A DNA stretch of 64,000 bases from Styela clava (lineage: Eukaryota). The notes under the pieces were generated by a model that saw nothing but the letters and a program-made list of their open reading frames with translations, made no database searches and was not told the DNA's origin. The translations under genes were made by a program, and so were the position numbers. The stretch lies in NCBI RefSeq assembly GCF_964204865.1, contig NC_135259.1, forward strand, positions 7,750,001 to 7,814,000. The letters run 5' to 3'. The first letter of the stretch is position 1. Every line of letters begins with the position of its first letter. Shown here in pieces: positions 2,173 to 55,026 of this stretch.

Positions 2173-2692
2173 TTTTGAAAAAATGGCAGTGCCACATGAT
2201 AATTTGGTAGACTTACTGCCTGACTGCTGTACTCTATTCTTATTTAACAGAGTACAGGAGTATCGTAGGCTGACAGGCCTAACGCATCAGGTGTTTTTCT
2301 TTGCTAGTTCGCAAGAAAAAACTGACCAATATCTGAATATGCAGATATGTAAAAGCTGCCATAATAGGCCTTTGTTGTCAGTTACAGGGTTATAACTTAT
2401 ACAGTTGTAGACTAGTTAAGCTAAATATCGCTATAGTCTTCAGAGCTTCAAACTAAATTCTAAAATTGGATTCCACAATCTAATTTAGCCCTTTTTTCAT
2501 CAATATTGTACTATGTTAAACATAACTTGAAATTAAACTTTTCCTAGTTGTAGTTTTGTCTCTATTACCATACTGTTCTAACACTCCAGCGATATTGATA
2601 ATCTGTTCCAGCGAGTTCGAAAAAGTCATGTAAGCATGAAAAGCACGAAGGGAAATTAAGAAGAAAGCAAGCCAAGCTACCAAACTTCCAAA

Positions 2693-3205
2693 ATGCTTCG
2701 CAACTTCAGCTCATACTTTGTCAACAAATTTCAGCCAGCTACAATCTTGTACAAGCAACAATTAAAAAAAGTGTCATCATCCTCTTCGCCTGTACTGAAA
2801 CCGGTTCTTGGTGAACGAGCTTCCACAATTAAAACATTCAGCAATCAAGATGTTCAAACTTTTGCCGAATTGACAGGAGATGATAATCCGCTTCATTTTG
2901 ATCACAAGTTTGTTAACCAATCAGGGGTATTTCAAAAACCCATTGTTCATGGTGCATTAGTTAACGGCCTTGTTTCAGGCGTAATTGGTACGCAGTTACC
3001 TGGTCCAGGAAGTGTTGTAGTTGAACAATCGTCACGATTTTTGGCGCCTTTATATGTTGGAGACACTGTCAGAGTAGAAGTTATCATAACTTCTATCAAA
3101 AAACGATTTCTGGATTTGGCAATTGAATGTATCAATATGGATGCTGAAGAAGAGAAAAAGGTTATGCTTGGGAAAGTGACTGTTATGATGACAAAAAAGA
3201 ATTGA
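2693..3205 (+). CDS. HTD2: Mitochondrial 3-hydroxyacyl-thioester dehydratase type 2 (MaoC/hot-dog fold), intronless
   Basis: Hydratase-2 motif FAELTGDDNPLHFD, plus IVHGALVNGLVSGVIGTQLPGPG. The N-terminus is basic, Ser-rich and acid-free, like a mitochondrial presequence. Confidence 0.88.
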   Translation: MLRNFSSYFVNKFQPATILYKQQLKKVSSSSSPVLKPVLGERASTIKTFSNQDVQTFAELTGDDNPLHFDHKFVNQSGVFQKPIVHGALVNGLVSGVIGTQLPGPGSVVVEQSSRFLAPLYVGDTVRVEVIITSIKKRFLDLAIECINMDAEEEKKVMLGKVTVMMTKKN

Positions 3206-3895: not shown

Positions 3896-6824
3896 ATGTC
3901 TAAAGTTGCGATTTACTCATTCATTTCTGGATCAGCTCTTCTTGCTATCACATCTTTCGGTAATTATTTTTTTTATACGTTGTACATTGATGTCTATATC
4001 ATTGCTGGTAGAAATTTAAAAATAGAATTGTATTTTTTAATGAATCCATTGTAGCTGCTAAAGAAATATCAAAATTGAGAGTTTCAAAATGATCTGCTAT
4101 GTACCGAAATTGCAGAGATGACTGCTAGAAGTGACTGCAATGACAGTCAGACAATACTATTAAATCTCACTGGTTGAATTAGATTAGATAAACCCAACAG
4201 AACCTGATCTCTTTAATGATTTTGAAATATTCATTTCGCCAACTTTCTTTTCAGTTTTATATTTCCTATTCACGGAGCAGCAGTTTCGGATTGACATAGG
4301 ATGGTTAATTTCATCAATTACACCTCATGCATATGCTTCCGTCGGTGTCGGTTTGGCGGTGTCTCTCTCAGTTGTTGGGGCAGCTTGGTAAGTTCATTCA
4401 GCATAACCATGTCCATAACAACATGAGATATATATGAATATGTTTGAAATATTTTTTACATGTTTAGTTATATGTTGGTTGGACTGATTATATGTACTTC
4501 GTTCAATCTTTCCATCACGAATGATTGATTAGGTTGGCCTACTAGTTTTTTATTGCTACTTGTATGATATGGAACACTTCTTATTATTTCTTTCAATTCT
4601 TGTTACAGGGGAATATTCACAACAGGATCCACAATTATGGGAGCAGGAATAGTGACTCCAAGAATATATTCTAAAAATTTGGTACTGACATATTTGTTTC
4701 AGAATTATATTAGAATGTTGGTATTTACTATTTACGGGGCTAGACAACATATTAATAAGAAATGGAAAAACAATGAAATCATTGTTTATCTCAACTTTAC
4801 TGTGTTTTAAAATCCGTGGGATATACATCGAGTTCTACATGTTCTCTTTTGAGCATGATGTTGTTTAGAACAGTGGTTCATAACCTTTTTTAGTTTGCGG
4901 ACCGGTAAAATTTAAAAATTATTTTGCGGACCAGTGAATGTTCAAAATCAACTAAAGATGGCAAAAACACAAAACATGATTATTAAACGAATGTAATTAC
5001 GACAAAAATATGCAATTACGAAGCAGAAAATTCAATTTAATGAGAAATTTGCTGCTGTGTTTTCGAAATCATATGTGTTAAATGCAGTTTTAATACAATT
5101 TCTGCAAGGTGAAATAGAGCAGAGAGTTGACCTCTCCGTTTGTTCATGATGGGAGATTTTGCAATTGAGATAAAATATTGGAATATATTTGGCAGACCGG
5201 CAGAAAGGTTGCCACGGACCGGCGGTTGGGAACCACTGGTTTAGAATATATTCCGTATTCGAAAATATTAATTATACTTTAGAATGTATTCGAAATAATA
5301 AAATTTTCGGTATTATCCACTCGTGTTATTCAACTACATAAATGGGAAATAGTTCAACGCTTTTTATATCTTTGTGTTATATTATTTGAAATCTTTAGGT
5401 GAGCATCATATTTTGTGAGGCTGTTGCAATCTATGGAATTATTGTTGCTATTGTTATGTCAAACTTACTGGAGAATTATGACTGGGAAAATCTCAATGAA
5501 AATCAAAGGGCTATGAATTACTATGCTGGTATGTATCGACCATAATCATAAAACATACTTACGGTTTATGCCTAGAAATCAATATGTTATAAACCAGTCA
5601 AAGTGCAAACTATTGATTGTTATTAAATTGAATGGGTTGTGGAGTATTTCAGACCATTCACAGCAATTCTACTTCCACGATAGTAGGTCCTAAAATTCCA
5701 AATGAAGTACTGTGAATAGAAATGACTAGATTTTGCACAATTTACCTATTGTATGCAGTTCAAATAGCAATAATATTAAATTGATTTTTTAGTACTCCCG
5801 TAGTGTGTGTACCAGGTTAGTGTTGGGCCATGATTTTATTCCGATTTTCCCTATTTTAGTTATATTACGAGTTCATGGACTGTCTGTGTTAGCCAAGTGA
5901 ATATCCCCCTGCCCATAGGTTTCAGCCTCTTTACACAACTTGATGTAAAGCAGACGAACAAAATTAGTTCCCTCCATATTGGTACACACAATTCTGGAGC
6001 GCCGATTTTTCATAGCAGGGTCTGTTAATTGTTTGCCTTATTGCTCATTTTCATGTTTTTATCTTTAACTAAATGTAAGTTCAGTTCATGTTTTATATTG
6101 ATACTTGGTGATTGAATTTGATAGCACATGATAACTAAATAGCTCGCCTGTATTGCATTGATATGCTGACAATTATTTGTTATTTTGACTTTTTTTGTTA
6201 CAAATAGGTTTCTCAATATTTGCTGCTGGCATCATCACTGGACTTTCAAATTTAGCTTGTGGTATTTGTGTTGGAATTGTTGGAAGCGGAGCAGCTCTAG
6301 CAGATGCTGCCAATGAATCTTTGTTCGTGAAAGTAAGATACTGTTATCTTCATTTAAAAGTCTATTCTTTGTATTGTCAGGATATCAGTTTTTCTACAAG
6401 AAAATGTTGTGCTGAAACTGATATCTACAGGAATACAGCATACATCCGAGTGAGCACTCACTACTACTTTTGGTATTGCCTTTTCATTTAAATTTTATGC
6501 ATTTAAGATCTTATCGATGTTGTTTCTATCCTGATTCTGTTGTATTCAGTAATCATTTTATCACCTCCTCTTCTGAATGAGGTTGAATAAACTAAAATTC
6601 TTCATTGTTGCATACCACTATGCCTAATTAGGTCTTCAATTTCTATTGCCCTATGGGGATGAAGATTGTACATCTACATTTGTATCATAAATTAAAAACT
6701 AAAATATTTTTTCCAGGTACTCATTGTTGAAATCTTTGGAAGTGCGATTGGACTTTTTGGAGTTATTATTGGTGTAATAGCAAGTTCGAAAGCAAAAATG
6801 GGAAACTTTGAGAACATGGCATAA
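3896..6824 (+). CDS. ATP6V0B: V-type proton ATPase 21 kDa proteolipid subunit c''
   Basis: Six phase-compatible exons: 3896-3959, 4255-4387, 4609-4681, 5399-5528, 6208-6332, 6717-6824. Translation includes [45 protein letters not shown] and [32 protein letters not shown]. Confidence 0.95.
4871..5238. mobile_element. hAT-type MITE in ATP6V0B intron 3
   Basis: TIRs CAGTGGTTCATAACC / GGTTGGGAACCACTG; perfect 8-bp TSD GTTTAGAA at 4863-4870 and 5239-5246. Confidence 0.85.
5791..6003. mobile_element. Non-autonomous element of the GGTACTCCC...GGAGCGCC family (8-bp TSD, Mutator-like MITE)
   Basis: Homologous to 26439-26636; flanked by GATTTTTT / GATTTTTC (7/8 TSD match). Confidence 0.7.
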
Positions 6825-8549: not shown

Positions 8550-9500
8550 ATGGCGTCGTCAGCTTCTGTATATAGCATTCACCGCCCGGATTTCAATACA
8601 ATAAAACGCTAGCCTACTTTTAAAAACTTAAGATGGGTCACAACAGGATGCATGGGTGGATGAAACATCTCTAGTACTGTAGTATGGCCAGAGGTTGATA
8701 CCCTGACGTATATGAATATCTTATCAATACACCTGGAATATACACAGAGGAGGCCATGAAAAACAGGAAGAGTTTGGAAGCATACAAAATTGAACCGTTC
8801 CAGCCTTCGGTGTACAAGCTATTAAAAATTTGACGGTGGAATGTTTTTTGTAATTAGAGTATACTTGGGCTCGGACAAGTAATCGTTTCGGTCTATTGAT
8901 AAATATTTCTACAGCAGCCTATGATGCCAATCTTGGGAAGTATTGTCGAAAAAGTGGTGGTAGTGTTTTACTACTCGCTTCACAGTCCAACAAATCAGAA
9001 ACGACATTTTGTTTTCGATTGAATCAATCCAGCGCCAGAATACGTTGTCGAGATTGGATTTAGATAAATCAAATATGTCTGCTAACGTATCAAAATGTTC
9101 GTTTAGGCGTAGTTTCATGAGGGTCATGAGCATTTGATCCACATATTTCATTTTATAATGGCACGGATCTGGCAAACAGGGGCAGAAGAAATTGGACATA
9201 ACATCAAATGTTTCTAATGGTAAATCAGTATAGTAAATTAATTTCTTTGGCTTTTTGCTCAAGTTCTTGTAACTAAAAATGTAAAAATTTTCTAGTTTTT
9301 TCACTGCCTCACTTCTCTCTATTCTATGCTGTAAAAGTTTCGCCTTAAAGTTTTCTAAATTAGCTAAAAAGCTTCATCTTTCTCTTTTCTGATTTGTAAA
9401 TTTTTCTCCTCGAGTAACTCTAATTGATTTTCTTTGGCGGTTGCGTTGACTCACTATGAGATGAAGCTGCAGTATCGACTGGTTCCGGATTTTTATAAAG
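8550..9500. pseudogene. Decayed ISL2EU (PIF/Harbinger-related) transposon: transposase fragment on - and partner-gene fragment on +
   Basis: Minus ORF 8909-9304 has the HTH_Tnp_4-like pattern YYTDLP...DQMLMTLMKLRLN...LADIFDLSKS...VFWRWI. Plus strand ~8699-8788 reads [30 protein letters not shown], a motif I recognise from the SWIM/YqaJ partner gene of these elements. Both are truncated; boundaries approximate. Confidence 0.65.
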
Positions 9501-30540: not shown

Positions 30541-30614
30541 CAATTCCAAACTGTTTCTTCAGGACGTTGCAGCTGTGAAGATGACAAGTCCCTTTGCAAA
30601 AATAGGTTGGAAAC

Positions 30615-31970
30615 TTGGTGCCTACATTTTCCAAGACCACAAGAGGAAACGACTTACTGATTTACAAAGGCCACGAATATTGTAAGCGAAATGATCGGGT
30701 TTCAGATGCTACTCATTGGCGCTGCCGTCAGTTTAGGAAATTTCGATGTAAATCGACTGTTGTTACGATCGGTGAAAATGTAATAAAAGAACTAGGATAT
30801 CACAGTCATTCTGGCGACAGCATTAAGACTGAAGTTGGGATCATCCGTGCAACATTAAAAGAAGCAGCATCAACACCATCAAATACATCGACAAGATTTA
30901 TTTTAGGTGAAGTATTGAATAATAGATCAACAGATGTGCTAATGCGCTTGCCAGGCAAGTCGACTCTGGAGGCCAATATACGCAGAGTAAGGCGACAGAA
31001 AAAGTGTTCACGTAACAATCCTACAAGTGCTAGCTTTGATATTCCGAGCGAATATTTAGATATCATTTTGCATGACACTGGCCCGGAGGATCGTCATCGG
31101 ATAATGGCCATCGGAGTTCGATTACTACTTGCACATCTAGATAGTGACACATATCTTGGCGACGGTACATTTGATGTGGTGCCTGATATTTTCTTCCAGT
31201 TGTATACAATTCACTGTAAAGTGGGAGCATCCTATCCACCATGCGTATATTTCCTATTACGAGACAAGCGACAAGAAACATACGTTCAGATGTTGGAAGT
31301 GTTGAAAATCATTTTCCCAAATGCTAACCCCACCAAAATCATTGTTGATTTTGAAATAGCAGCTATCAATGCATTCCATGCACAATTTCCTCTGGCCGAT
31401 ATTAAAGGATGTTATTTTCACCTGTCACAAGCTCTAATTCGAAAAGTTGGTTCTATCGGATTAAAAGAGAAGTTTGATTGTTTACCCTCTTTCAATCTGA
31501 AAATTAGAAGTTTGGCAGCTCTGGCTTTTGTTCCCATTAACGAGGTTGCCGAAGTCTTCACCTTGCTTTGCGACACCTTCGAAGATTTGCCCGAATGCAA
31601 TCAACTTTTTCAATATTTTGAATCTACCTACATTCGTGGACCTCAAGTGGGTTCACGTCCAAGAGAAGCAAGATTTCCCCCTCGGTTGTGGAACTATGCC
31701 AAAGAGATTGAAATGATGCCTTCGGCCCCAAGAACAACAAACGCTGTAGAAGGATTTCATCCGAGTATATGGGGTTTGCTGAATGGCCTACAAAAAGACA
31801 TTGCGGTCCACAAACTGACTGTGGCAAATGCTCATGTAGGAGTTACGGCCCATCAAAGATCAAAGTATGTACAACTTGCTGTTAGGTTGTCAATTAAAGT
31901 TTTTTCATATGGAACTGAAACCGACAAGCTGAGGTATCTCCACTCAATAGCTCAAATGCAGTCTATTTGA
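30615..31970 (+). CDS. FLYWCH zinc finger + MULE DDE transposase (no in-frame ATG at the start; possibly defective)
   Basis: FLYWCH pattern LLIYKGHEY...WRC......C...HSH; DGTF (D1), VDFE (D2), GCYFH, RTTNAVEGFH (E). The ORF opens at TTG after an in-frame TAG. Confidence 0.9.
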   Translation: MVPTFSKTTRGNDLLIYKGHEYCKRNDRVSDATHWRCRQFRKFRCKSTVVTIGENVIKELGYHSHSGDSIKTEVGIIRATLKEAASTPSNTSTRFILGEVLNNRSTDVLMRLPGKSTLEANIRRVRRQKKCSRNNPTSASFDIPSEYLDIILHDTGPEDRHRIMAIGVRLLLAHLDSDTYLGDGTFDVVPDIFFQLYTIHCKVGASYPPCVYFLLRDKRQETYVQMLEVLKIIFPNANPTKIIVDFEIAAINAFHAQFPLADIKGCYFHLSQALIRKVGSIGLKEKFDCLPSFNLKIRSLAALAFVPINEVAEVFTLLCDTFEDLPECNQLFQYFESTYIRGPQVGSRPREARFPPRLWNYAKEIEMMPSAPRTTNAVEGFHPSIWGLLNGLQKDIAVHKLTVANAHVGVTAHQRSKYVQLAVRLSIKVFSYGTETDKLRYLHSIAQMQSI

Positions 31971-37604: not shown

Positions 37605-38204
37605 CACTAGTGTCGAACTTTGGTAGGCAAGCTTGTGAAACTCAGCAATAACAAATTGTAGTGACTATCAGGAAAAGCAGAGGTGAAACTTGGACAGATT
37701 TGTGATATTACTAAATAAAACCGTTGACAGAATATTTGTTTCAACTTCCTTATTTAAAACCATGGTTTCCTTATTCACTTCCTGTAGCTCGGCTACCTTG
37801 TCTAAATTGTGACAACCAAATCTCTCTATAATTTTGCATAATTTTATAGACAACAGTCAGAAAACTTTTTTTCATACACATTTGAATACATCTTTAGTCG
37901 CGTTTGCATCCCGCACAAGCAGCGCGCGGATGCAAGCACTAATACATTCAGGATAGGGCGGAAATATATCTGCAAACGTTAGTTATTCAGTTACAATTTC
38001 CTAAACCTTGAAATTATTTTTTTTATATATATTTATATCCAGAAATATTTTTCAATTTTATTAGCGACTGAAGAGAGTATATTTCATAACTGTGTGTTAA
38101 AACACCTGAAGAAACACAGCAGGTTTAGCAATTCAACAAAACCGGACATATTAACTGTTCGACTTCTCAATACCTGGCAAAAAATATTTTATTGCCAATT
38201 CAGA

Positions 38205-39623
38205 ATGTCGGTCAATTCGACATGGCCGCTGGAGACTAATTCACGAGCATACGATGGTATCTCTAGCAACAGAATAAGAAGCCCGCTGAGTATAAGTGAG
38301 GACTTATTACCAATTTGGATACTCTGCGAATCAACTTCCTGCTGCCTAACTGCGATTTCTATCTACATTGCGGCAGTGTTGATAAAGCATGCGAGAAGTC
38401 AAAGCGTTTCAAGGTTGGCAAAGCGACAGAGAGACAGTATGATGTTTCCTTCTCAGGTTAAGTGTTCATCAAATGAAAATACCAATCAAAAACTCCCAGA
38501 CGTTTCAATCGGATCACAAAAAGATGACACGTTCAATCCAAATCCGGTAAAAATACCTTATAACGAACAAATTAGTGTTGAGAGTGCAAAAAGCAACAGC
38601 AACCTGATTGTTGGAAGTCCTGTTGGTGTGAAACCAGAATTTAATTTTACGCAAGGGCAGATTATAAGCGTTCATAGAAAAAAGGAAACTAATCAAGGAA
38701 AATGGCTCCTGCGAAGCATACTTGTGTGCGTCATTGCTGTCGTACTACGCTGCGTTACCGAACAGAGTCTTATACTTATGGGAAATTGGTCTGACCACGC
38801 TTGCGATATTTTAACCAAACTAATGATTACTTTCACTGCAGTGTCCCTTCATTGTTGTCACGTATTTTTATGGCTCAGGCAACTTACTTTCTACTCCAAT
38901 CCGGTGCTGAAACCCCTACAATCAAAGAAGCTAAAAGTTGTGAGCTATGCAGCTTATGGAATCATGCCAATTACTCTTGCCCTAACTCTCGCTTTATACA
39001 TGTGGTGGAGGGACTACAAAAACTACGAGGGATTTTGTGCAGCTTCAAAAAAACAAAACTTACCTTCGTACGTCCCGTTTTCAGTTCTAATTGCCTGCAC
39101 GGTCACTATTCAAGTCTTACTGTCATCACTATTTTTGTATCCGCTCATTGTCCATAAAATGAAAAGGCGAAATTCAGCAACTAAAGTGAAAGCAAGAGTC
39201 GACGATACTGCATCTGAATCTCGGGTCACTACAGCGCCAGTGGTGAAATCAAGAAGATCAGACAGACTGATGGAATGCATCAGGAGAGTTCTCCACGGCG
39301 CGACCGTTGGAATTACCACAGATGTAGTCGGAGGCGTGGTGTCTATATTTTTGCCAGATGACTTACCTATATTCGCTTTAAGCTTATTATACAACCTCAA
39401 TGTTTCATTGAATCTGCTATGTCTCATCTACACGTTTGCAAACTGGAGGCAGATGTTATTTCCTTGGTGTTGTCCGTCTCATCAACAAAAAGAATTTCGA
39501 AACTCCATACGCAACAGGCGTTCTTCTGCGCGACAAGGACGGCATAAGCACAGTCGTCGTCCTAGTCAAAGGTCAAATACTGTTATGGGAACCAAATACA
39601 CGTTAAAAGACGTTGGTACTTGA
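38205..39623 (+). CDS. Intronless orphan 7-transmembrane GPCR-like protein (472 aa from the first ATG)
   Basis: Seven hydrophobic segments, N-terminal NST sequon, Cys at the top of TM3 and in ECL2, basic Ser-rich tail. No DRY or NPxxY motif. Homologous to 57376-58641. The ATG at 38205 follows an acceptor-like TTCAG. Confidence 0.85.
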   Translation: MSVNSTWPLETNSRAYDGISSNRIRSPLSISEDLLPIWILCESTSCCLTAISIYIAAVLIKHARSQSVSRLAKRQRDSMMFPSQVKCSSNENTNQKLPDVSIGSQKDDTFNPNPVKIPYNEQISVESAKSNSNLIVGSPVGVKPEFNFTQGQIISVHRKKETNQGKWLLRSILVCVIAVVLRCVTEQSLILMGNWSDHACDILTKLMITFTAVSLHCCHVFLWLRQLTFYSNPVLKPLQSKKLKVVSYAAYGIMPITLALTLALYMWWRDYKNYEGFCAASKKQNLPSYVPFSVLIACTVTIQVLLSSLFLYPLIVHKMKRRNSATKVKARVDDTASESRVTTAPVVKSRRSDRLMECIRRVLHGATVGITTDVVGGVVSIFLPDDLPIFALSLLYNLNVSLNLLCLIYTFANWRQMLFPWCCPSHQQKEFRNSIRNRRSSARQGRHKHSRRPSQRSNTVMGTKYTLKDVGT

Positions 39624-41912: not shown

Positions 41913-44900
41913 TTACACAATGTTATTGTTTGTATCTTCTTTCTTCTTTTTTGGAGTTTGAATGTGAAATTGTTTTTGATTTACCGCCACTCGGACGAGT
42001 TTTTTTTTAGTTGTTTTGATTAATGTCGGCCTTGGTTCAGCATCATGATCATTTTCTTCTTCTTGTATTTTTCCTACGTTTCTCTGAATTATTTTTTAAC
42101 AAAATGAATATAAAAATAAACTAAATTCTAGCATGGAATCAAATTAAGCTTTGAATTACTTTGAAAATGTAAAATTTTGGATTGCAATACTAAATAAACG
42201 ATTGTATTTATTGCACCAATCTGCTGTTGTGTTTGAGGGTAACTGCTCGAGGTAAAAATGAATTATAAATTTTATTCTACATTGTGGCTTTAATATAAAA
42301 CCAGAAAATACTCTCATGTTATTATAACCTGAAACACTGGATCATGTGTGTCAATCATGTCCATGGGATTTTCTTCTCCGTTATTCACAGCTTTTTGAAC
42401 CTTTTCCATTAATTTTGCTATTCCTTCTGGCATTCCACTCTTCCCGTCGCGGTGAACAACCGGTGGTTTTGGCTTGCTCGGATGTTGCTTTGGAAAAGTA
42501 TATGTTTGATATTAGATAGATATTTATTTTTGACTTAACATTATGCTTGGAATTCATTTTTTCCATATAGAGAAGACACGACATATTTATATATATATAT
42601 AGGGGGAATGAGTGTGGTTTATGATGTATTAGGTATAGGAACAAAAACAAACAGATAGATTTTGCGCAAACGTAACGGCGCAATTCACAAATTAACAAAT
42701 AAATCGGAGTAAACCTAGGTTGGATACAATGCAGATGTTCCGAGGACATGAATTTTTTTTATGATTTTTCCTCGGGAATAAACATAAATATTTTTGTTCT
42801 TGTTTATATAACCTAACTAACCTACATTATAGAAAACAAAAACAGTTTTGAATAATAGTTATTTAAATTCAACCTTTAATTCAGCCATCTTGCGTTCATA
42901 TTCAGCTTGATTTTGCCTTTGTCTTCTGGCTTTTTCCTTCATTACTTCTTCGTGGCGTTGGGCCTTACTTCGAATCATATTTTCTGTCATCTTTTTCCTT
43001 GAAACGACAAAAAAAATATTTACTGAGCGGAACTTTGAAATCGCAAGAATAATTTAAAATAATATTTTTGTGTAGAATTGGCTAGGTTTGTCATCATGTC
43101 TTTTCCGAGAACTCAAGGCAAACGAGACAATAACTTGATTCCAGTCGTAAACTTTATACGAATCAACTAGTTTTTACTACAAGTCCGTGGACTACTCCTA
43201 TATATCAAGTAACGATATCTGTGATTCATTCATATTCAAGTTGTTTTTTTTGAGTTTCGAATCATGCTTTCTTAGTTTTCACGTGGTGGTAGTGGATGCC
43301 AATATTTCCTTTTCTATTATAAAATACAAATATATGTGTCTTACTTCCAATATACATCTCTTGTGCGAGCATCAACAACGGGATCTCCTGAAGTGACTTC
43401 AAACCACCAGTTCCATTGAAAGTATGGCTGTCTATATTTGTCAACAATTTTGCTTTCGACTGCATACGTTCCTGAGATAAAGATCGATTTTAAATATCAT
43501 AGCATAGCCTACCTATTATAATGTGTTATATTTTTTAAAAATAACTGTTTTTTACCGCAACTCAAATAGCGAGTATTTTATTTCTTGGTGATTTCGCGTG
43601 TCATATTTTTTCGCAAGTGATCATCGAAATATACCATCAACCGGTATGTTTACTGTAATATATAATTTACCTGGTATATTTGGAATTGCAAAATCAGGTG
43701 TTCGGAAGCTGTACTTCTTTGGAATGTCGGGATTTGAAAAATTTGGCGTTTTCTTCCCTGGCCAAGTGAACGTATAATGATCTAGAAAAATATCACATTT
43801 ATTACAATAAAGGGCGTAATGGATTTATTTTCAGGTAATTACATAAATTAGCATGCGATAATATTTGCCTATAAAATTATCTAAAAAGTGAAATATTAAA
43901 ATCGAAATCGTTAAATGTTTATGATTTGAAATGTTGGGAATAATATTATTAGGTTAAATATGGGACATGGTGTTCAATTATCTATTTAATGGTATGACGT
44001 AAATTTTTCTTTTGCTATCTCACTAAATGTGCATCCAGTGAGATGGGTTTTCACTCTTTATATCGTATTTCGTCTAATCTATGTTCAAAAAATATAACAA
44101 TGGGCTACTTACTTTCTCCTTTCTCAAGATGAGATTCGAAATGCTTTTCATCGGTGTAATATAGATATTCCGACGGGTTTAAGACGACCTGTTCGTAAAC
44201 AAAATATGAACATTTAATCAACATGCATTTATTGCATCATGATTTGAAAACGTCTGAAAGCGGTATCTGAGTGGAAAGTTGACAAGACGTAAGGCAAACA
44301 ATCATTTTTGTATGTAGTTATTTTTTAAATAACTATATTTGTGATTAATCACCCATAATTTACACTTTTGCAAGAAACCATCGAAGTGCTGACATTCAGA
44401 TGTGTGAATAAATTTGACTATAGATGGTATGTTTTCGTTTGGTTTGGACATTTCAGTGTCCACAAAAAAAAGAATTTGATGTTGGCATTACTACAAGAAA
44501 TACACGTCAAAACAATCATATAGGAAACAATTTAGTTTTAGTGCGTTGTAAAAAGTCTGCATTTGTTATCTGTTATAGTTAAGCATCTCTTACACGTGCA
44601 AATGCGTACGCGTAATAAATTGAATTAATTAGTGCACATTTGGGAGGGATATGTAAAAATCTGCAGAAAAAGTAACACAATTAAATCAGCACTTCATGAT
44701 AATTGTATTCGTTGTTAACATATTTTGCGATCTTTATAAAAATCATATCTAAAAGCCTTTACGCAAGATTTACACAAGACTGACTTGAGATTAAAAAACC
44801 AGATAAATCAACATATTTATATGGGGAACTTAAAAATCAAATACCTCTATATCAATCTTAAAAGCGAAGTAGTGTCTAAAATGATTTCCTTCGTTTTCAT

Positions 44901-47900
44901 TAACCCATTTGGTTATATCGGGAGGAATCGTTTGTTTCAGAGGTTTTGGCAAACTCTGGTGTGCTCCATAAAAACCAGGGCAGTATTTTACATATGCTGT
45001 TGTATTTTTAGCCAGCACTTCATTGAGTGTAGGGATTCTTTTAACACCGTCTTCTAAAACTTCACTTGGGTCTAAAACTAAACGCGTATCAGTTCCTATT
45101 TGGTGTTTGCCATCTTTATTTATTACAAAGTCTCCACTTGCAGCTTGTTTTCTCAATTTCATCCAACCAAGCCGCATATCATTTCCCAATGCACCCATCA
45201 GTCTAACGTTTGGACGGGACATAATTAGTCTGATAAGCTCTTTATCACTGTGCTTGGGTGGACCTTTTTTGCGTAACGTGTATTTGATCCCGTTTACTTC
45301 CTTTACGATTCCTCCACATAATGCTTGCATTTTGTCGCAAGCCGATTTCGCTGCCGTCAGGTTTGGGTATGAATAATCGGAGTCGTCAATTCGGTCGTGC
45401 TTCTCAAGGGTCTTGTTGATATATGTTTCCCATCGGCAACGACGGATGTCAATATCATCTGAACCACGTATATAACTTAAAAGTTATACTTTTTGTTATG
45501 CAATAGTAATTTCATACAATCACCCAAGCACCCGGAAAGTGTTAGTAGAAAAAATAGCGATGCGATGAAGGAGCACTCGACTACAAATCATGGCGGCGCG
45601 GGCGGTTTAATCTAATCTCTAAAAAAATTTATATTGATTAATGTTTTTGTATCGAAGCAAATATTTACTCACTTGAAAATGCAAGTCGAATGAATAGTGA
45701 TGTGGACAAGGTTTTGAAACATCTGTGCACATGAACGCTGACTTGTGCGGCCTGAACTGTGAAAATTCTCCCGGACAATATCGCAAGTATGCATACTTTT
45801 CAGGCAAGATGTATCGGCGTCGTTCAGCTGACAATCTTTCGTCTCCATTTTCGTCGGGGGATACTGTAGGAGGTTTTGGCGCGGACGGGCCACTTATAAC
45901 CAAGTGTCTAGGAATGCTACCCCTCCTTAAACTATAATTCTCTTGTTTGTTTTCACGTTGAACTCCTGAGCACTCAGGAACAAGTTTGTCGCACAGGTCT
46001 TGTGCTTGTTTGAGATCATGCAACATTGAAAACCGTCGTTTTCTACCATCTGGACCAATTAAATTATCTTTTATAAGTGAAGATTTGCCGTCTTTTCGGA
46101 CGGTACCAGGCCACAGTGAAATATTTTGCGCTTCCTTTTTCTCTGTTAATTCAATGACGAAGTCCAGATACTTCCCGGGAAATTTCTCATAACGACACGG
46201 TCCTGTGAGGGTAGGTATAATGGTAAAGTGGGGTTTGATCGGAAGGGAGAAAAGATAAGTAAAGCAAACAGTTAATGATAATAAATGATGATGACAATAA
46301 ATGATGCATTACAAACAATACAAGCTACGAAATTATAATGAACAACAAAATTGCAGAAGTAGAAACAAAGCAAAAGAGAAATGTGAGTGGTGGATTACGG
46401 TTATCCAGGATCGGGTGGGAACAACGCGTTTGATTTACCTTAAATCGAAGAATAGTATTACTAGCCGCGGAGAAACATCGACACCAAGGTACAATTTTAA
46501 GATGACAAATTTGGATAGTTTGAGTGGATGCATGCAAATTTAATAAATTTAGTGCATAAAAAAGAAGGTTAGTAATCAAATAAGAGTTTTGCGATTTCAT
46601 TTGGCGCAAAGCAAACGAAGATTTGTTAATGGAAGCAAACAGGGTGCAATTATGACGTAGGTTTCTGTTCAACCATGGGGTTTGGACGTCAAAATCCAAC
46701 GACCATGTCCCATGGCTGAATAAGACTATTCACATGCAGATTATATATTAAGACTTTCTCGCAATTGCAAATACATACCTGGATACAGGTCTATATCCAT
46801 TGATGCCCTGCCATCAATATACAGCGTCAGTTTTGTTACTTGAATTCGTCTGATGTCAATAATTAATTTTGTATACATTGGAAAACGTTTTACTTCAAGT
46901 AACCGATATTGCAAATCTGATAACCCGTCAATATCTGCTCTTGTTTTTCTTGTGAGGTTTAGTTTGAAACTAAAAATAATTAATAGTTAATCAGACAACA
47001 ATTAGGTATTTTTTTTAGTTCATTCAATGTTTCTATAAAACTGGCAAAAGGGTTTCTTGTTCATGAAATTGTCATCTGTTTTCAGAAAAATCTATGCAAT
47101 TGAAGTCATTCAAATTTAACTAATCATTAAGATTGAAATGTCTAGAATTTTTTTATCTCGACAGATAGCAAGTGTATACTTATCTGGTAAACTTAACTTA
47201 AAATCTTCAACAATTGATAATTGTATTTTAAATCTACGAACTCGTCGAGATAAAAATATCATCTAACTGTTAACATGTAGCCTCATTTTTATTTAGTCCC
47301 ATTTTGTTTCGTTTTTTGAGAGAATACACAAAAAGAATACTATGTTGTTTTTGCTTTGTCTGACTAGACCAGGGGTTCCCAAACAAGGGTCGCGACCCCA
47401 AAGTGGGTCGGAGTGATAAGTAGGTGGGGTCGCAAACAGGTCATGAGGTCGGTGGGGTCGCTGAGGTATGGTGGAGGATGAATGTACAAAACATCTAAGA
47501 TTTGATAAATCTTGTTAAATTTAGCAGCTTGTACCATGTCTTACTGTAAAACAGGCATATAGGCATCGCTCTATGCCTATGCTATAGAAAATGTAGGTGC
47601 TTATTGCGACATCACTGTTTGGTTTCAGCTTATTTTACCTAATATCACCACATGACCAAACTCAAAAGTCCAGTGAAAGAAGCTCCGAAGTTTCATGAAG
47701 AAATTATATATAGACCTGGGGTCGCACTGGACACTTGAAAGTTGTCTTTGGTGTCGTCCTGAAAAAAGCTTGGGAAACCCTGGACTAGACTAACATTAAA
47801 TAACGTCAGCAGAATTTTAATTACATTAATTATGCAAAACTTTTCTTACGGATATTTATTTGGACTAAATTTCCACGGATGTAAATGCGGAATCATCATG

Positions 47901-50900
47901 TATCTCCCCACTTTCAGCGAAGAAGGAACGATCGTCATATTCCTGCAAAACGGTAGATAGTTTTTTTAATCAATAGAGTGCATATTTATTAAAAGATTAG
48001 ACTTTACACAATCAATTGATATTAATTAAATATAAAAGTAATATAACTCTTACCTATGTTGTATTCTGAATTCCATGTCGTTATCTTCACCTCCCCAACC
48101 CCAGAATCGGTTAGAGTGCCCGTTTGCCTTACGATATTGTGATGGCGTAATTCCTGTGACTCCTCCAAATTCAGTTCCATAATGAGGTTTATACTGAAAT
48201 TTGTCGATTGCTGGGACGATAAGAATTTGTATTTAAATGTCGGTTTGTTTACTGCGAGATTCGCTATCTTTTTGGTAAGCAAGTACATAATAAAATGTAG
48301 AACATCGATTTATTATACTCAGTTTTTATCATAACAATCTGTGCTTCTTTACATGCAGATGGCAGCACTTTTAAACCATCCAAGAAAACTCGGTACAAAT
48401 CAAATGCGTGAAGGATTACATAAAATGTGTTTATATTATTTGATAATGCTCACCAGGAGAGAGATGCCGTGGTTGATCAGCACACATATAAAAGTTTCTA
48501 TCGTTTTCAGGAATCATATCAACATCATGGAAAATTATACAATCGTAATCATCCAACTTCAATGCTTCTTCGAAAGCAGCATTCATGACTGTAGCTTTGT
48601 TGAATTGACCGTTATCAAACTAAAATAATTAGAATTTAGGAATAAAACTGTTGTTGTTTGAAGATTGCCCCAAGCCTTTACGTTCAGTGAAAATTCATGC
48701 GACTTTTTTGATAAATTGCTTTTGATAAAAACGGCCTTCAATTGTTGTCTGCAGTAATAATATAATAAATGATTGAACCTATTATCTATTTATTAATTAA
48801 TGTTAAATACTGGAAAAGATAAATGACTTGAATAACCTTTTTTATTCGATTTGTGTGTAAAAGAGAAAATTACGTTGCAAAAGATTTCCTGGTAATAGCC
48901 CTTAGGGAAATAGATTTATTTGAAATTCTGTACAAACTCAGATAGTTAAATAACTCATAGCAATATCACCTACAAAAATGAGGAAGGGATTAAACAACTT
49001 TGTACTTACCTGCTCTGCTACGTATATGCAGTAATGGATATGTTGTCTCATCAACATAGGATGTAAGTGATACAATAACGTTTTAAGATGTGCATCTCTG
49101 TCCTTGAACGGAATTATAACTGCTACCTTTTGCCTTGAAGAAATTACATATACAAGTCAAAAAAAGTAAACATCAGGGGTCGGATAGTATACTTCCTGTC
49201 TTTTTGCTTATTACAATACTTACAAAGCTATACATTCTTTCGGTGAATAACACCCTCCAATTGATAAACCTGGTCCAACATGTTTTGCAACTTCTTCCAT
49301 CGAAGGTGTAATATTGGGATTGCTCTTCATGTCACCAACTAAAATGAAAAACATAGTAATATAAATATATAGTAAGAGTGACCATAACAAAGGATATGGA
49401 TTTCTTTGCAAGAATGAAAGGTGTCACAATCACCTTTTTATATCAGTTTAAATTTTTAGGTTTTTACAAGGATTTTTTAAAGAAAGGTAAATTCTTCAGA
49501 TTGTTTAATACACGTACAGATTGAATATGTGTGTAACATATTGTAAGTACGGTTTAATAGCGTCATTATATTCTTGTAAGCAGCTTGGGCTTAACTATAC
49601 TATTCCCAAAATAATTTTAAAAACATAGTTCTATAAATAGTTTCATAAAAAGTTGTAGCTTTCAAATATAATATATAAAGTCATATTTTTATCCACACAC
49701 TTGAAGAATAAATGATATACAGCTCATCCTTATCTCACCCAGCTTTGGCGATCGTTTTTTACATTTCTCCAGAGATTTTTGTGATATCTTATCTTTCTCT
49801 TTATTTTCGGCAACTGCTTCGATTTGTCGCGTTACATCTACTTTTTTAACAATTTCTTTTTTAACAATTGGGCTTGTCGCAAGAAGAATTGAAGTACTGG
49901 TGATTGAAGTAATTGGTGTTTGTTTTTGTTGTTCAAGCTCTTGTTGTTGTTGTTGCGGCTGCTCTACTTTCTCTGTTTGTTCTTCCTCAATATGTGCTCG
50001 TTTTTCAAGTTTTGGAGGTTCTGCTTCTAGTTGAGTTCTATTAAAAATGAAGGTGTGATTGACATTGATTTTAGTCAATAATGGACCATCGGTACCACAT
50101 AAACAAAAAAAATTGAACCCAATTTTGTTCAGTAATGCGTTCAACTGGGGCATTTAACATGCTGGGTGCGCCAAACTAAGTAAGTAAGCTATTCGGAGCA
50201 CAAGTGATTACGGTTCATCTAAGCATAATTGCTTGTTACATTTTCAAAAAGCCGGATCCATAAGAGTAAAATTTACAGTGCTTTCCTCATTATGAAACAC
50301 CAAGACAACAGCAGTTCAAATTTCACATTACCTGTAACCAATTTTTTGTATTGCTGTATTTTAGGTTAACGTTGATATAACTGATGACAGAATTTTTTTT
50401 TTCGAAATTGAATATCAACATAGATAACGCCATGGTATTCTTTGAGAAGAATCATGTTTGTATAGCTAAATTACAGTTAAAATAAAAGTACGAACGTGAA
50501 TTAATGAATATTTAATTTAATTCCAGGAAAATGGATATTCTTTGCTATCGATGTCTTAAAGTTAGACAAGTTGACATAGCCCCGGGCATCGCAAAAACTT
50601 TGGTATTTGAATAATTCAACAAAAATACGTAAACAAATCGTCTGTACTCTTACGTGTTATGATGAAATTCGTATTCATTTAATGAATAAATCTGAGTTCA
50701 TCAGTATTACATTAATTAGCATTTCAAACCTGATAAAAAATTCTCTTGGCATTGCCTTACACCAACAGGTAGTGCAAAATTTGGTATTTATCTATGGTTG
50801 GCTGCAAAACACATATGCTGTCAAATTCATTTTGTTTTATGCTCAGGGCCATTGCATAATTTTCAAAAATCGATGATGAGTTCGTGCATACCAAAAAACA

Positions 50901-51199
50901 TATTTTTAGCATCTGAAGAAAATTTGAATGTATATGAAAATCACCGAATGAGTATGTAGTATTTCTTTTCTTTATATCGTCATCAAAAAATTACCATTAT
51001 TTTCGTTTTTGTATGCGGGAGAATGCCTTTTCACTCACCTCACAGATTTTTTTTCCGTAATGTAAACGGTGCATGTGAATAAAAGTACAATGAAGATAAG
51101 AATATTGAGACTACGTTTTCTTCCCCCTAGTCTTAATGAACGTGGACACAACAGCAATGCATTTCTGGCGCTTCTGCTTATTCTCTGTAGCAACGTCAT
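41913..51199 (-). CDS. GT7-family beta-1,4-galactosyltransferase-like type II membrane protein with long C-terminal extension; two predicted isoforms (~867 and ~895 aa)
   Basis: Exons (minus): 51199-51039 (cytoplasmic tail and TM), 50037-49739 (Q/E-rich stem), 49338-49224, 49133-49010 (KVAVIIPFKDR), 48619-48454 (FNKA...FHDVD), 48210-48054 (FGGV, WGWGGEDND), 47942-47850 (GRYMMIPH), 46969-46779 (DGLSDLQY...YTKLIIDI), then either 46202-45673 or 45458-44845, then 44188-44113, 43781-43671, 43471-43345, 42997-42874, 42487-42329, 42083-41913. All junction phases are compatible; the last three exons are less certain. Confidence 0.88.
44845..45458 (-). CDS. GT7 gene alternative exon 9b: PAN/apple-like 4-Cys module, variant B
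   Basis: TTCAG acceptor (phase 1), GAG|GTATTT donor (phase 0); RCRWETY...AKSACDKMQALCGGI...YTLRKKG...AYVKYCPG...HYFAFKIDIE. Confidence 0.8.
45673..46202 (-). CDS. GT7 gene alternative exon 9a: PAN/apple-like 4-Cys module, variant A
   Basis: CTCACAG acceptor (phase 1), GTGAGT donor (phase 0); PCRYEKF...AQDLCDKLVPECSGV...YSLRRG...AYLRYCPG...HYSFDLHFQ. Confidence 0.8.
47370..47782. mobile_element. hAT-type MITE in a GT7 gene intron
   Basis: TIRs CAGGGGTTCCCAAAC / GCTTGGGAAACCCTG; GGGGTCGC subterminal repeats; perfect 8-bp TSD GACTAGAC at 47362-47369 and 47783-47790. Confidence 0.9.
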
Positions 51200-54335: not shown

Positions 54336-54445
54336 GGTAGATCTGAAGTATGCGCACCAAGATGTCGCACAACCTGAACCCTAACCTGGTACACAAACTG
54401 AGTTCAGGTTGTGCGCCATCTTGGTGCGCATACTTCAGGAGGTCC
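54336..54445. mobile_element. 110-bp hairpin MITE related to the 20531 family
   Basis: CTGAAGTATGCGCACCAAGATG.CGCACAACCTGAAC is mirrored almost perfectly; the loop contains CCCTAACCTGGTACAC; GG...CC ends; perfect 8-bp TSD GAGATTTG at 54328-54335 and 54446-54453. Confidence 0.88.
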
Positions 54446-55026
54446 GAGATTTGCCCTGGATTTAGTTAATCATAAGGGTGCGCGTTTCGTGAAATCTGCC
54501 ATATAAATTTAGCTTAATTAGGTCCTATTTAGTATTGGCGATTATTTCTTGTTATTGTGAATGGTATATTATCATTATTTCATTGCTTATTTATAGTGCA
54601 TCCGTGTCGTTATAAATTAGTTTTATCGTTGGTCTTCAAGTTTCTGTGCTGTAGCAACCCTTTACTCATATGTGGAGAATGATGAATACAGTTTGTTTTC
54701 TAAGGATCTCGTTGCCTCTTTACTACTTTGGTTGTGCAGTTACTAGAAGCTGGGAGATTGCGCATAATTCTTCAAAACGGATGCGGGTGAAAATACAGAA
54801 ATAGGACTCAACTACAACAACGTTGAATGGATTGGAATTCACGTTCCAACTTCACAGTGTTGTTGATGTTCTTCTTCTTGTTCTTCTTTGTCAAAGAAAA
54901 ACGCTTTTCTCTTTTCGCTTTTTAAAATTTTCAGTGCTTGGAGATTAAATTTTTCGCTAGAAGGCTAATACTTTTATTTATTTTAAATATTCCAGTGAGC
55001 TGCATATTATTCGTTTTTTGTGTGCT

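Follow-up and report, generated by a model that had tools for sequence, protein, structure and literature searches.

One question raised by a 64,000-nucleotide stretch of the Styela clava genome (RefSeq assembly GCF_964204865.1, contig NC_135259.1, positions 7,750,001 to 7,814,000 of the forward strand) is why a glycosyltransferase of the GT7 family should continue for several hundred residues after the motif that closes its catalytic domain. This stretch is called the window here, and all coordinates are window positions, with 1 as its first letter. The gene lies on the minus strand, with its ATG at 51199 and its stop codon at 41915-41913; the motif, YTKLIIDI, covers residues 404-411 and ends at 46852, and the reading frame continues beyond it. 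Based on our models, the catalytic domain is followed by a β-sandwich that almost certainly has the immunoglobulin fold of RhoGDI, and within this sandwich is nested a predicted PAN/apple module that is supplied by one of two mutually exclusive exons. We propose that the RhoGDI-fold sandwich is a pedestal, from which the GT7 enzyme presents one of two alternative PAN modules that select the acceptor, and we hold this proposal to be about evenly poised between right and wrong.

The exon chain was drawn from splice signals and then corrected against public contigs. The runs behind these contigs come from two studies and are only guessed to be RNA, none being recorded as such; the contigs are assemblies, not single molecules, and assembly drops rare variants. 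At least 15 joints of the gene are among those listed in the contigs, 12 of the 15 in all four runs, and every listed joint has GT-AG ends, as do all introns of the gene; four bins upstream of the gene lack contig cover. A single contig of 3,176 nucleotides (run X5), whose listed pieces reach from 51256 to 41453, includes exon H, the first of the two alternative exons. The product with exon H (867 amino acids) is a letter-for-letter database match to S. clava LOC120337292 isoform X2 (P0001), and the product with the second alternative, exon I (895 amino acids), is isoform X1; NCBI labels both 'uncharacterized'. Eight genomic exons lie downstream of the YTKLIIDI motif and two of them are mutually exclusive, which leaves seven per isoform and a tail of 456 amino acids with exon H or 484 with exon I. 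The first-pass annotation of this DNA, made from its letters, had described an extension of ~440-470 amino acids on seven further exons. The extension is real and belongs to the same transcript as GT7, but it is longer on one isoform than was thought; the exon number is borne out for each isoform by contig joints, all GT-AG, and the three tail motifs that were quoted are all present, in exons K, K/L and M.

If the downstream exons were a separate gene or a mis-prediction, the GT7 transcript could be expected to end before 46200. The contigs instead join GT7 to the downstream exons, by in-frame canonical joints in both studies. The fusion of GT7 and tail is also present in five full-length homologues, the same genome has three intronless copies in which the two are contiguous (two of them with an intact frame), and the exonic variants examined in exons G-J are all synonymous (10/10). 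What speaks for a separate gene is the guessed RNA status of the runs and the use of contigs in place of single molecules, and we regard it as hardly credible.

The first coding exon (51039-51199) contains the ATG, a short N-terminal tail and a hydrophobic segment at residues 30-48 (51112-51056), and exon A (49739-50037) encodes the stem and the beginning of the GT7 domain. Another candidate exon, at 50468-50332, was dropped, having no cover and being bypassed by the 50037-51039 joint. The GT7 catalytic domain occupies exons B-F (47850-49338; B 49338-49224, C 49133-49010, D 48619-48454, E 48210-48054 and F 47942-47850), which carry DVD (265-267), WGWGGEDND (325-333) and M357/H360. Both PF13733 (175.9 bits, cut-off 27) and PF02709 (74.7 bits, cut-off 23) place it in the GT7/β4GalT family above the curated cut-offs, and residues 141-411 match solved B4GALT1 chains at E ~1e-73 and B4GALT7 at 1e-34 to 1e-27. 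With the B4GALT1 metal ligands, Trp loop and Glu313/Asp314 numbered after PMC6198961, the DxD, the Trp loop and the metal ligands are kept (D265/D267, W327/E330/D331, M357/H360). Judged from its sequence, the enzyme is likely to be active. The same source gives Tyr285 of β4GalT1 as responsible for donor specificity, and when the sugar contacts that it names (Tyr285, Arg224 and Asp315) are taken as a test of the β4GalT1 type, all three are replaced: K241 for R224, E302 for Y285 and N332 for D315. The E302 position is D in Clavelina and Phallusia and I in the homologue P0050, and the GEDND form is common to the five homologues checked (5/5). The label 'galactosyltransferase' is not established for this enzyme.

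By hydropathy only, each of six full-length rows (6/6) has one hydrophobic 19-mer near its N-terminus and none scoring >0.98 past residue 120. The protein is likely a type II Golgi enzyme, and from its one hydrophobic segment, with none in the tail, the tail would be luminal. One annotated Clavelina isoform (X3, P0024) has neither the membrane anchor nor the start of the GT7 domain.

What, then, is the tail? Structure prediction for residues 412-719 with a 26-row alignment yielded a confident model (predicted local distance difference test, pLDDT, 85.8; predicted template modelling score 0.78), and a Foldseek search, which had been put forward as a check for the region after YTKLIIDI, returned 30 matches at E<=0.001. 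Among the matches listed these are RhoGDI throughout (best 1.1e-5), and the first non-RhoGDI match (E 1.9e-3) ranks below all 30. An independent aligner (VIA, 48,161 chains) put RhoGDI2 at the top, with Z 10.6, a root-mean-square deviation (rmsd) of 3.2, 130 of 137 residues and 21% identity, and RhoGDI-alpha second at Z 10.5, both above PDE6D at 8.2 with 12% identity; at Z <=7.9 follows a crowd of Ig-like folds which includes UNC119B, Asf1, Wzt carbohydrate-binding domains and NPC2. A further structural comparison gave RhoGDI Z values of up to 11.6, over RhoGDI residues 68-201, with rmsd ~3 Å and 18-21% identity.

The predicted sandwich is discontinuous (residues 412-435 plus ~590-701), and although the match extends over model residues 1-292, no more than 130 of them are aligned. 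Its first two strands lie in exon G (46779-46969, with a phase-1 donor), which also holds the end of GT7, and they occupy residues 412-435 (46851-46780), joined to GT7 without a linker; the remainder comes after the insert. One strand is carried by the alternative exon, by our own mapping the equivalent of RhoGDI Tyr110-Phe116, and exon J (44113-44188) carries a further strand or strands. Exon K (43671-43781) provides the strands with HYTFTWPG...PNIPG, and exon L (43345-43471) the final two, which give the best sequence match to RhoGDI, together with the invariant W694, W696, W697 and E699 and the onset of a long helix. An Ig-like or carbohydrate-binding sandwich that follows the PAN-like module had been suggested before, and in the model the aromatic region behind that suggestion makes up one half of the discontinuous sandwich. 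Both elements are supported and the Ig-like part of that suggestion stands, but the best match is the RhoGDI Ig domain (Z 10.6) and not a Wzt carbohydrate-binding domain (7.5), and the sandwich begins right at the GT7 end with the PAN module inserted within it.

Sequence comparison points in the same direction as the fold, weakly but specifically. In a BLAST search against the genome's own RhoGDI, the two best segments fall at either end of the sandwich, on its first and its last strands (E 0.012 and 0.002, respectively), and keep their order, and a split profile scores this RhoGDI above 5,000 of 5,000 shuffles, at 12.2 bits. Global alignment of insert-free family rows, with hand-chosen borders, gives Z 4.6-8.4 against it in all eight rows, reached by none of 1000 shuffles each. 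A 45-position profile built without RhoGDI found only RhoGDI among 177,635 PDB sequences (18/18 matches, best E 0.039). The middle sandwich strands align ambiguously to RhoGDI, Pfam found nothing on the intact extension, and the whole-extension profile drew nothing but chance matches from the PDB sequences. For the Phallusia extension the Atlas has no usable feature match, and a RhoGDI cluster stands at row 6 of 10 in its structure list, under the Atlas's own bar. Descent from RhoGDI is, in our view, quite probable, and the source would be the C-terminal half of a RhoGDI gene. The alignment starts at RhoGDI residue 65-68: the N-terminal regulatory arm is absent and the GT7 domain stands in its place. 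The genome has a single RhoGDI gene, with an intronless coding frame (L002).

One possible option is that the sandwich keeps the hydrophobic cleft of RhoGDI and grips a glycolipid tail or a lipidated acceptor in the Golgi lumen, presenting it to the active site, with the strand of the alternative exon tuning the lipid preference. Among the fold matches, the best three with a known function in common are the lipid carriers RhoGDI, PDE6D and UNC119 (PMC5758567), and the strand of Tyr110 sits on the cleft side, in the alternative exon. By our own mapping, two residues of RhoGDI-1 that PMC8253491 names near the lipid site also find matches, Tyr110 in Y605 and Ile177 in V679, but both are ordinary core residues of the fold as well, and the alignment of the middle strands is ambiguous. 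Moreover, the arm that RhoGDI needs in order to open its closed cavity, according to PMC5758567, is missing here. We find a lipid pocket of this kind rather unlikely.

Another hypothesis is that the sandwich itself is a lectin, in which W697 and the neighbouring polar residues would stack sugars and hold a growing polysaccharide such as the tunic sulfated galactan. W697, E699, E630 and P690 are invariant in all ten family rows (10/10), and RhoGDI has no aromatic residue that corresponds to W697; packing on GT7, the insert or the helix would account for an invariant Trp just as well, and its outward orientation would follow from strand alternation only. The Wzt carbohydrate-binding domains share the fold (Z 7.4-7.5), but they stand amid a generic Ig crowd, 3 Z units under RhoGDI. 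PMC7540406 ties β4GalT genes to tunic galactans. A sugar-holding sandwich seems to us distinctly unlikely, and the idea of an enzyme-lectin, which the first-pass annotation had raised, fits the PAN module better than the sandwich.

The insert itself is encoded, in the 867-amino-acid isoform, by exon H (45673-46202), which runs from phase 1 to phase 0 over 176 amino acids and contributes a predicted PAN/apple-fold insert (~residues 436-585; Cys 438, 506, 513 and 578) and one sandwich strand (residues 604-612). The full-length AlphaFold model is poor (mean pLDDT 49) and was used only for the better-scored insert and helix; residues 491-530 reach pLDDT 79-88. In the list of structure matches, five of the top seven rows and row 19 are PAN/apple entries that match residues 435-586 (Z 6.0-7.5), that is, six entries from five distinct proteins, of moderate strength. 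The best is 4a5t 1-81 (Z 7.5), which we take to be plasminogen, followed by leech anti-platelet protein (7.0), the HGF N-domain (6.9), a factor XI apple domain (6.3) and TgMIC4-A5 bound to lacto-N-biose (6.0). These matches bear out the PAN-like module seen earlier. All ten family rows (10/10) keep the four insert Cys, and the insert loops vary, as would be expected for a variable recognition module on a constant base.

Exon I (44845-45458), used in the 895-amino-acid isoform, is a diverged duplicate of exon H (E 2e-6) with the same four Cys; it also begins in phase 1 and finishes in phase 0, and it encodes 204 amino acids. The complete joint table of runs X2, X3 and X4 contains joints G-H (three runs), G-I (two), H-J (two) and I-J (three), but no H-I joint and no G-J joint, and one X3 contig spans G-I-J-K-L-M-N; run X10, also covered by the table, has no contigs and is evidence neither way. 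At the observed sites, H and I together shift the frame and lead to a stop at 645 amino acids, and neither leads to a stop at 448. The exon I variants among those listed are all synonymous (7/7). H and I are mutually exclusive exons: they are homologous and in tandem, have the same phases and flanks and are not joined to each other in the contigs. The first-pass annotation does not mention such a pair. The H-I intron is retained in low-depth contigs of X1 and X2 (44843-45700), and reading through from H stops at 45621 with the loss of most of the sandwich. Contig depths for H and I are ~960 vs 70 in X2, ~980 vs 90-110 in X4 and 329 vs 258 in X3; because per-contig depth cannot rank expression, this gives only a hint of regulated switching. 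As to how exclusivity is achieved, a search of the window for inverted repeats found no shared one that accounts for it, and steric exclusion is unlikely, because the H-I intron has 214 nucleotides and a CTAAC element lies 127 nucleotides from the donor. In a metagenome contig (L006), positions 3151-3176 and 5038-5063 form a 26-nucleotide, 92% complementary inverted match over the exon H end and donor, to which none of the five pairs detected in the window corresponds.

The pair is old. H- and I-type products come from one Clavelina locus (isoform X2 vs X1/X3) and from two Phallusia entries with consecutive accessions, and the L006 contig has G-H-I-J-K-L-M in the same order and the same phases; for Ciona the one product found is of the H type. 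Eleven inserts form a tree that separates H (five) from I (four) at 99/99, and pairing of H with I within a lineage was rejected in all four tests (approximately unbiased p 1e-9 to 0.006), so the duplication would be older than the lineages compared. A 25-row insert tree agrees with the H/I split, with lower support for the H group (88/83). By these sequence comparisons, four ascidian lineages have both exon types, and duplication in each lineage separately is rejected. The full-length homologues with an assigned species are from Styela, Clavelina, Ciona and Phallusia, the RhoGDI-like domain appears to be kept across ascidian orders, and two divergent homologues (P0018 and P0050) have a single compact insert each. 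The taxonomic survey that had been suggested found species-assigned relatives in ascidians only; no homologue was assigned to a non-ascidian species in database searches of which three require shared exact words, a weak test of absence elsewhere. Four of 19 matches (P0006, P0013, P0016 and P0017) were discarded as repeat-type chance matches, two by reading the sequence and two by their multi-stretch pattern alone. Long ENA contigs (P0007-P0012, P0014 and P0015) hold two more well-separated groups of H-like exons, which may represent additional alternative exons, or else paralogues, from other tunicates. The Ciona orthologue may be the notochord gene Ci-β4GalT (KH.C11.44; PMC3034685).

Four further loci in the Styela genome have the same layout, these counts being lower bounds: one with introns (G000:C1 ~7,775,000-7,782,000; L016, L017) and three intronless ones (G000:C17 15,064,000-15,083,200; L010, L011). 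The first has GT7, sandwich and PAN, with the insert split over at least three exons, and Arg at the Tyr285 position. Two of the C17 copies are intact (704 and 721 amino acids) and one is frameshifted at ~568 amino acids; they have Gly at the Tyr285 position and stand nearer to the C1 gene, and may be retrocopies. Over the whole genome, PF02709 gives 34 matches at E<=0.001, counted by exon and not by gene, and these form clusters on C3, C16 and C17.

Behind the sandwich, exon M (42874-42997) encodes a charged helix, predicted at residues 705-759, and the protein closes with exon N (42329-42487), a poorly conserved tail, and exon O (41913-42083), which holds the tail end and the stop codon; the putative RNA contigs extend at least to 41453, into the 3' untranslated region. 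One could read the tail as a docking or assembly arm that binds partner Golgi enzymes or itself and sets localisation or complex membership, not acceptor choice. The helix is conserved over ~55 residues, and several protein-binding modules figure among the PAN/apple matches (HGF N-domain, factor XI apple, leech anti-platelet protein), which counts in favour of such an arm. Human B4GalT1, moreover, forms homomers and heteromers (PMC6198961). No heptad repeat was found in the helix in any of six homologues (6/6; a/d occupancy 0.31-0.44, p 0.054-0.965), which leaves the coiled-coil oligomer of the first-pass annotation unsupported, and its 36-59% of E/K/R/Q fits a single charged helix better. A dimer prediction for residues 412-765 scored 0.00 with its alignment unused and the fold uncertain, and is evidence neither way. 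We think a docking role for the tail improbable.

The mechanism that we favour starts from GT7 fused without a linker to the RhoGDI-fold sandwich, which would act as a fixed pedestal. The PAN module would bind some feature of the acceptor, either glycan or protein, in the way that the ricin domain steers GalNAc-transferases, and the choice between H and I would switch the substrate preference of one enzyme; helix and tail would most likely be a spacer or an interaction arm. A constant sandwich (W694, W696, W697, E699) together with a PAN module kept in two versions fits a fixed pedestal with an exchangeable acceptor reader. Several points weigh against this proposal. A fold alone shows no function. 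The PAN/apple matches are of middling quality, with Z<=7.5, and were obtained on a model of mean pLDDT 49 (79-88 in this part), none of 20 insert sequences matches the Pfam PAN profile, and a PDB sequence search with the insert profile gave chance matches only and no PAN family. For the sandwich, PF02115 (RhoGDI) reaches 14.7 bits (E 0.025) in one of seven members, under the Pfam cut-off of 26.5 bits, hhalign of the extension against RhoGDI gives a probability of 6%, and shuffle controls overstate significance for β-strand proteins. The exclusivity of H and I rests on assembled contigs, which lose rare variants, and a frame-restoring alternative donor at 45668, which would permit H and I together, exists, its use not being seen in the contigs. 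Switching is not required for the architecture, because the paralogues and the two divergent homologues carry one insert only, and the three altered sugar-contact positions leave the donor uncertain.

A broader picture would join these elements. Tunicates may have captured the lipid-binding half of RhoGDI into a Golgi enzyme, where this half would continue to hold a lipid tail and to present acceptors that are glycolipids or lipidated, and an ancient exon pair would swap the PAN reader and one pocket wall as a splice-controlled substrate switch, possibly for a new linkage given the altered donor site. We offer this picture tentatively and think it unlikely as a whole.

The rest of the window adds some context. 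Two intronless open frames, 37983-39620 (plus strand) and 58668-57379 (minus strand), of 546 and 430 codons, flank the gene; they have several hydrophobic segments and look like G protein-coupled receptors by eye, with no Pfam family above cut-off. A short element at 54343-54446, whose contig depth when summed is very high and which shows many loose ends in each of the four runs, is probably a dispersed repeat. A Pfam scan also found a FLYWCH-MULE transposase match (30606-31967, plus), a DDE-transposase helix-turn-helix fragment (8912-9373, minus), a MaoC-like dehydratase match (2660-3202, plus) and a match to SOSS complex subunit C (1678-2169, plus).

The GT7 family, whose β4GalT members end at the catalytic domain, gains here a candidate built-in substrate selector, of which the two versions lend themselves to direct comparison in Ciona, a tractable animal. 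Synthases are poorly assigned for the tunicate-specific glycans of tunic or notochord, and the architecture suggests candidates for this role. No description of the architecture was found among the papers listed by searches aimed at it, judged by title or abstract start, in a field where subscription papers and genome-paper supplements (e.g. Figure S5, on glycosyltransferase domains) could mention the gene.

Compared with β-1,4-galactosyltransferase 1 (CAZy GT7; PF13733 and PF02709), the Styela protein shares DVD, the Trp loop, the Glu-Asp pair, the Met/His ligands and a single N-terminal membrane segment; it differs at the three sugar contacts and in its tail, as the B4GALT1 chains end a few residues past the aligned VDI. 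With the C-terminal Ig-like, prenyl-binding domain of RhoGDI (PF02115), to whose fold PDE6D and UNC119 are related, it has in common the predicted fold and the motifs of the first and the last two strands of the genome's own RhoGDI. It differs in lacking the arm, in its insert of 150-180 amino acids after the second strand, in its fusion to an enzyme, in its predicted luminal position and in scoring below the Pfam cut-off. Being armless, insert-bearing, enzyme-fused and predicted luminal, it cannot act as a Rho GDP-dissociation inhibitor. To our knowledge the RhoGDI Ig domain has been known only within a stand-alone cytosolic chaperone; here it appears to have been moved across the membrane into a secretory enzyme and opened to host another domain. 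The hosted insert superposes over ~70-75 residues on PAN/apple domains (HGF N-domain, factor XI apple, leech anti-platelet protein, Toxoplasma MIC4 apple 5; Z 6.0-7.5, rmsd ~3 Å); unlike them it has long extra loops, has no Pfam PAN match, is nested in another domain and exists in two spliced versions. Other Golgi glycosyltransferases with accessory luminal domains are the polypeptide GalNAc-transferases (ricin lectin), xylosyltransferase (Xylo_C) and β4GalNAcT3/4 (PA14). They belong to other enzyme families or use other accessory folds, and none known to us has a domain of the RhoGDI type, a PAN module nested in another domain or a module exchanged by mutually exclusive splicing. What they share with the Styela protein is a catalytic GT-A domain with an accessory luminal module that would steer or support acceptor use, and it is with this known class, the Golgi glycosyltransferases with an accessory luminal module, that the Styela protein would belong.

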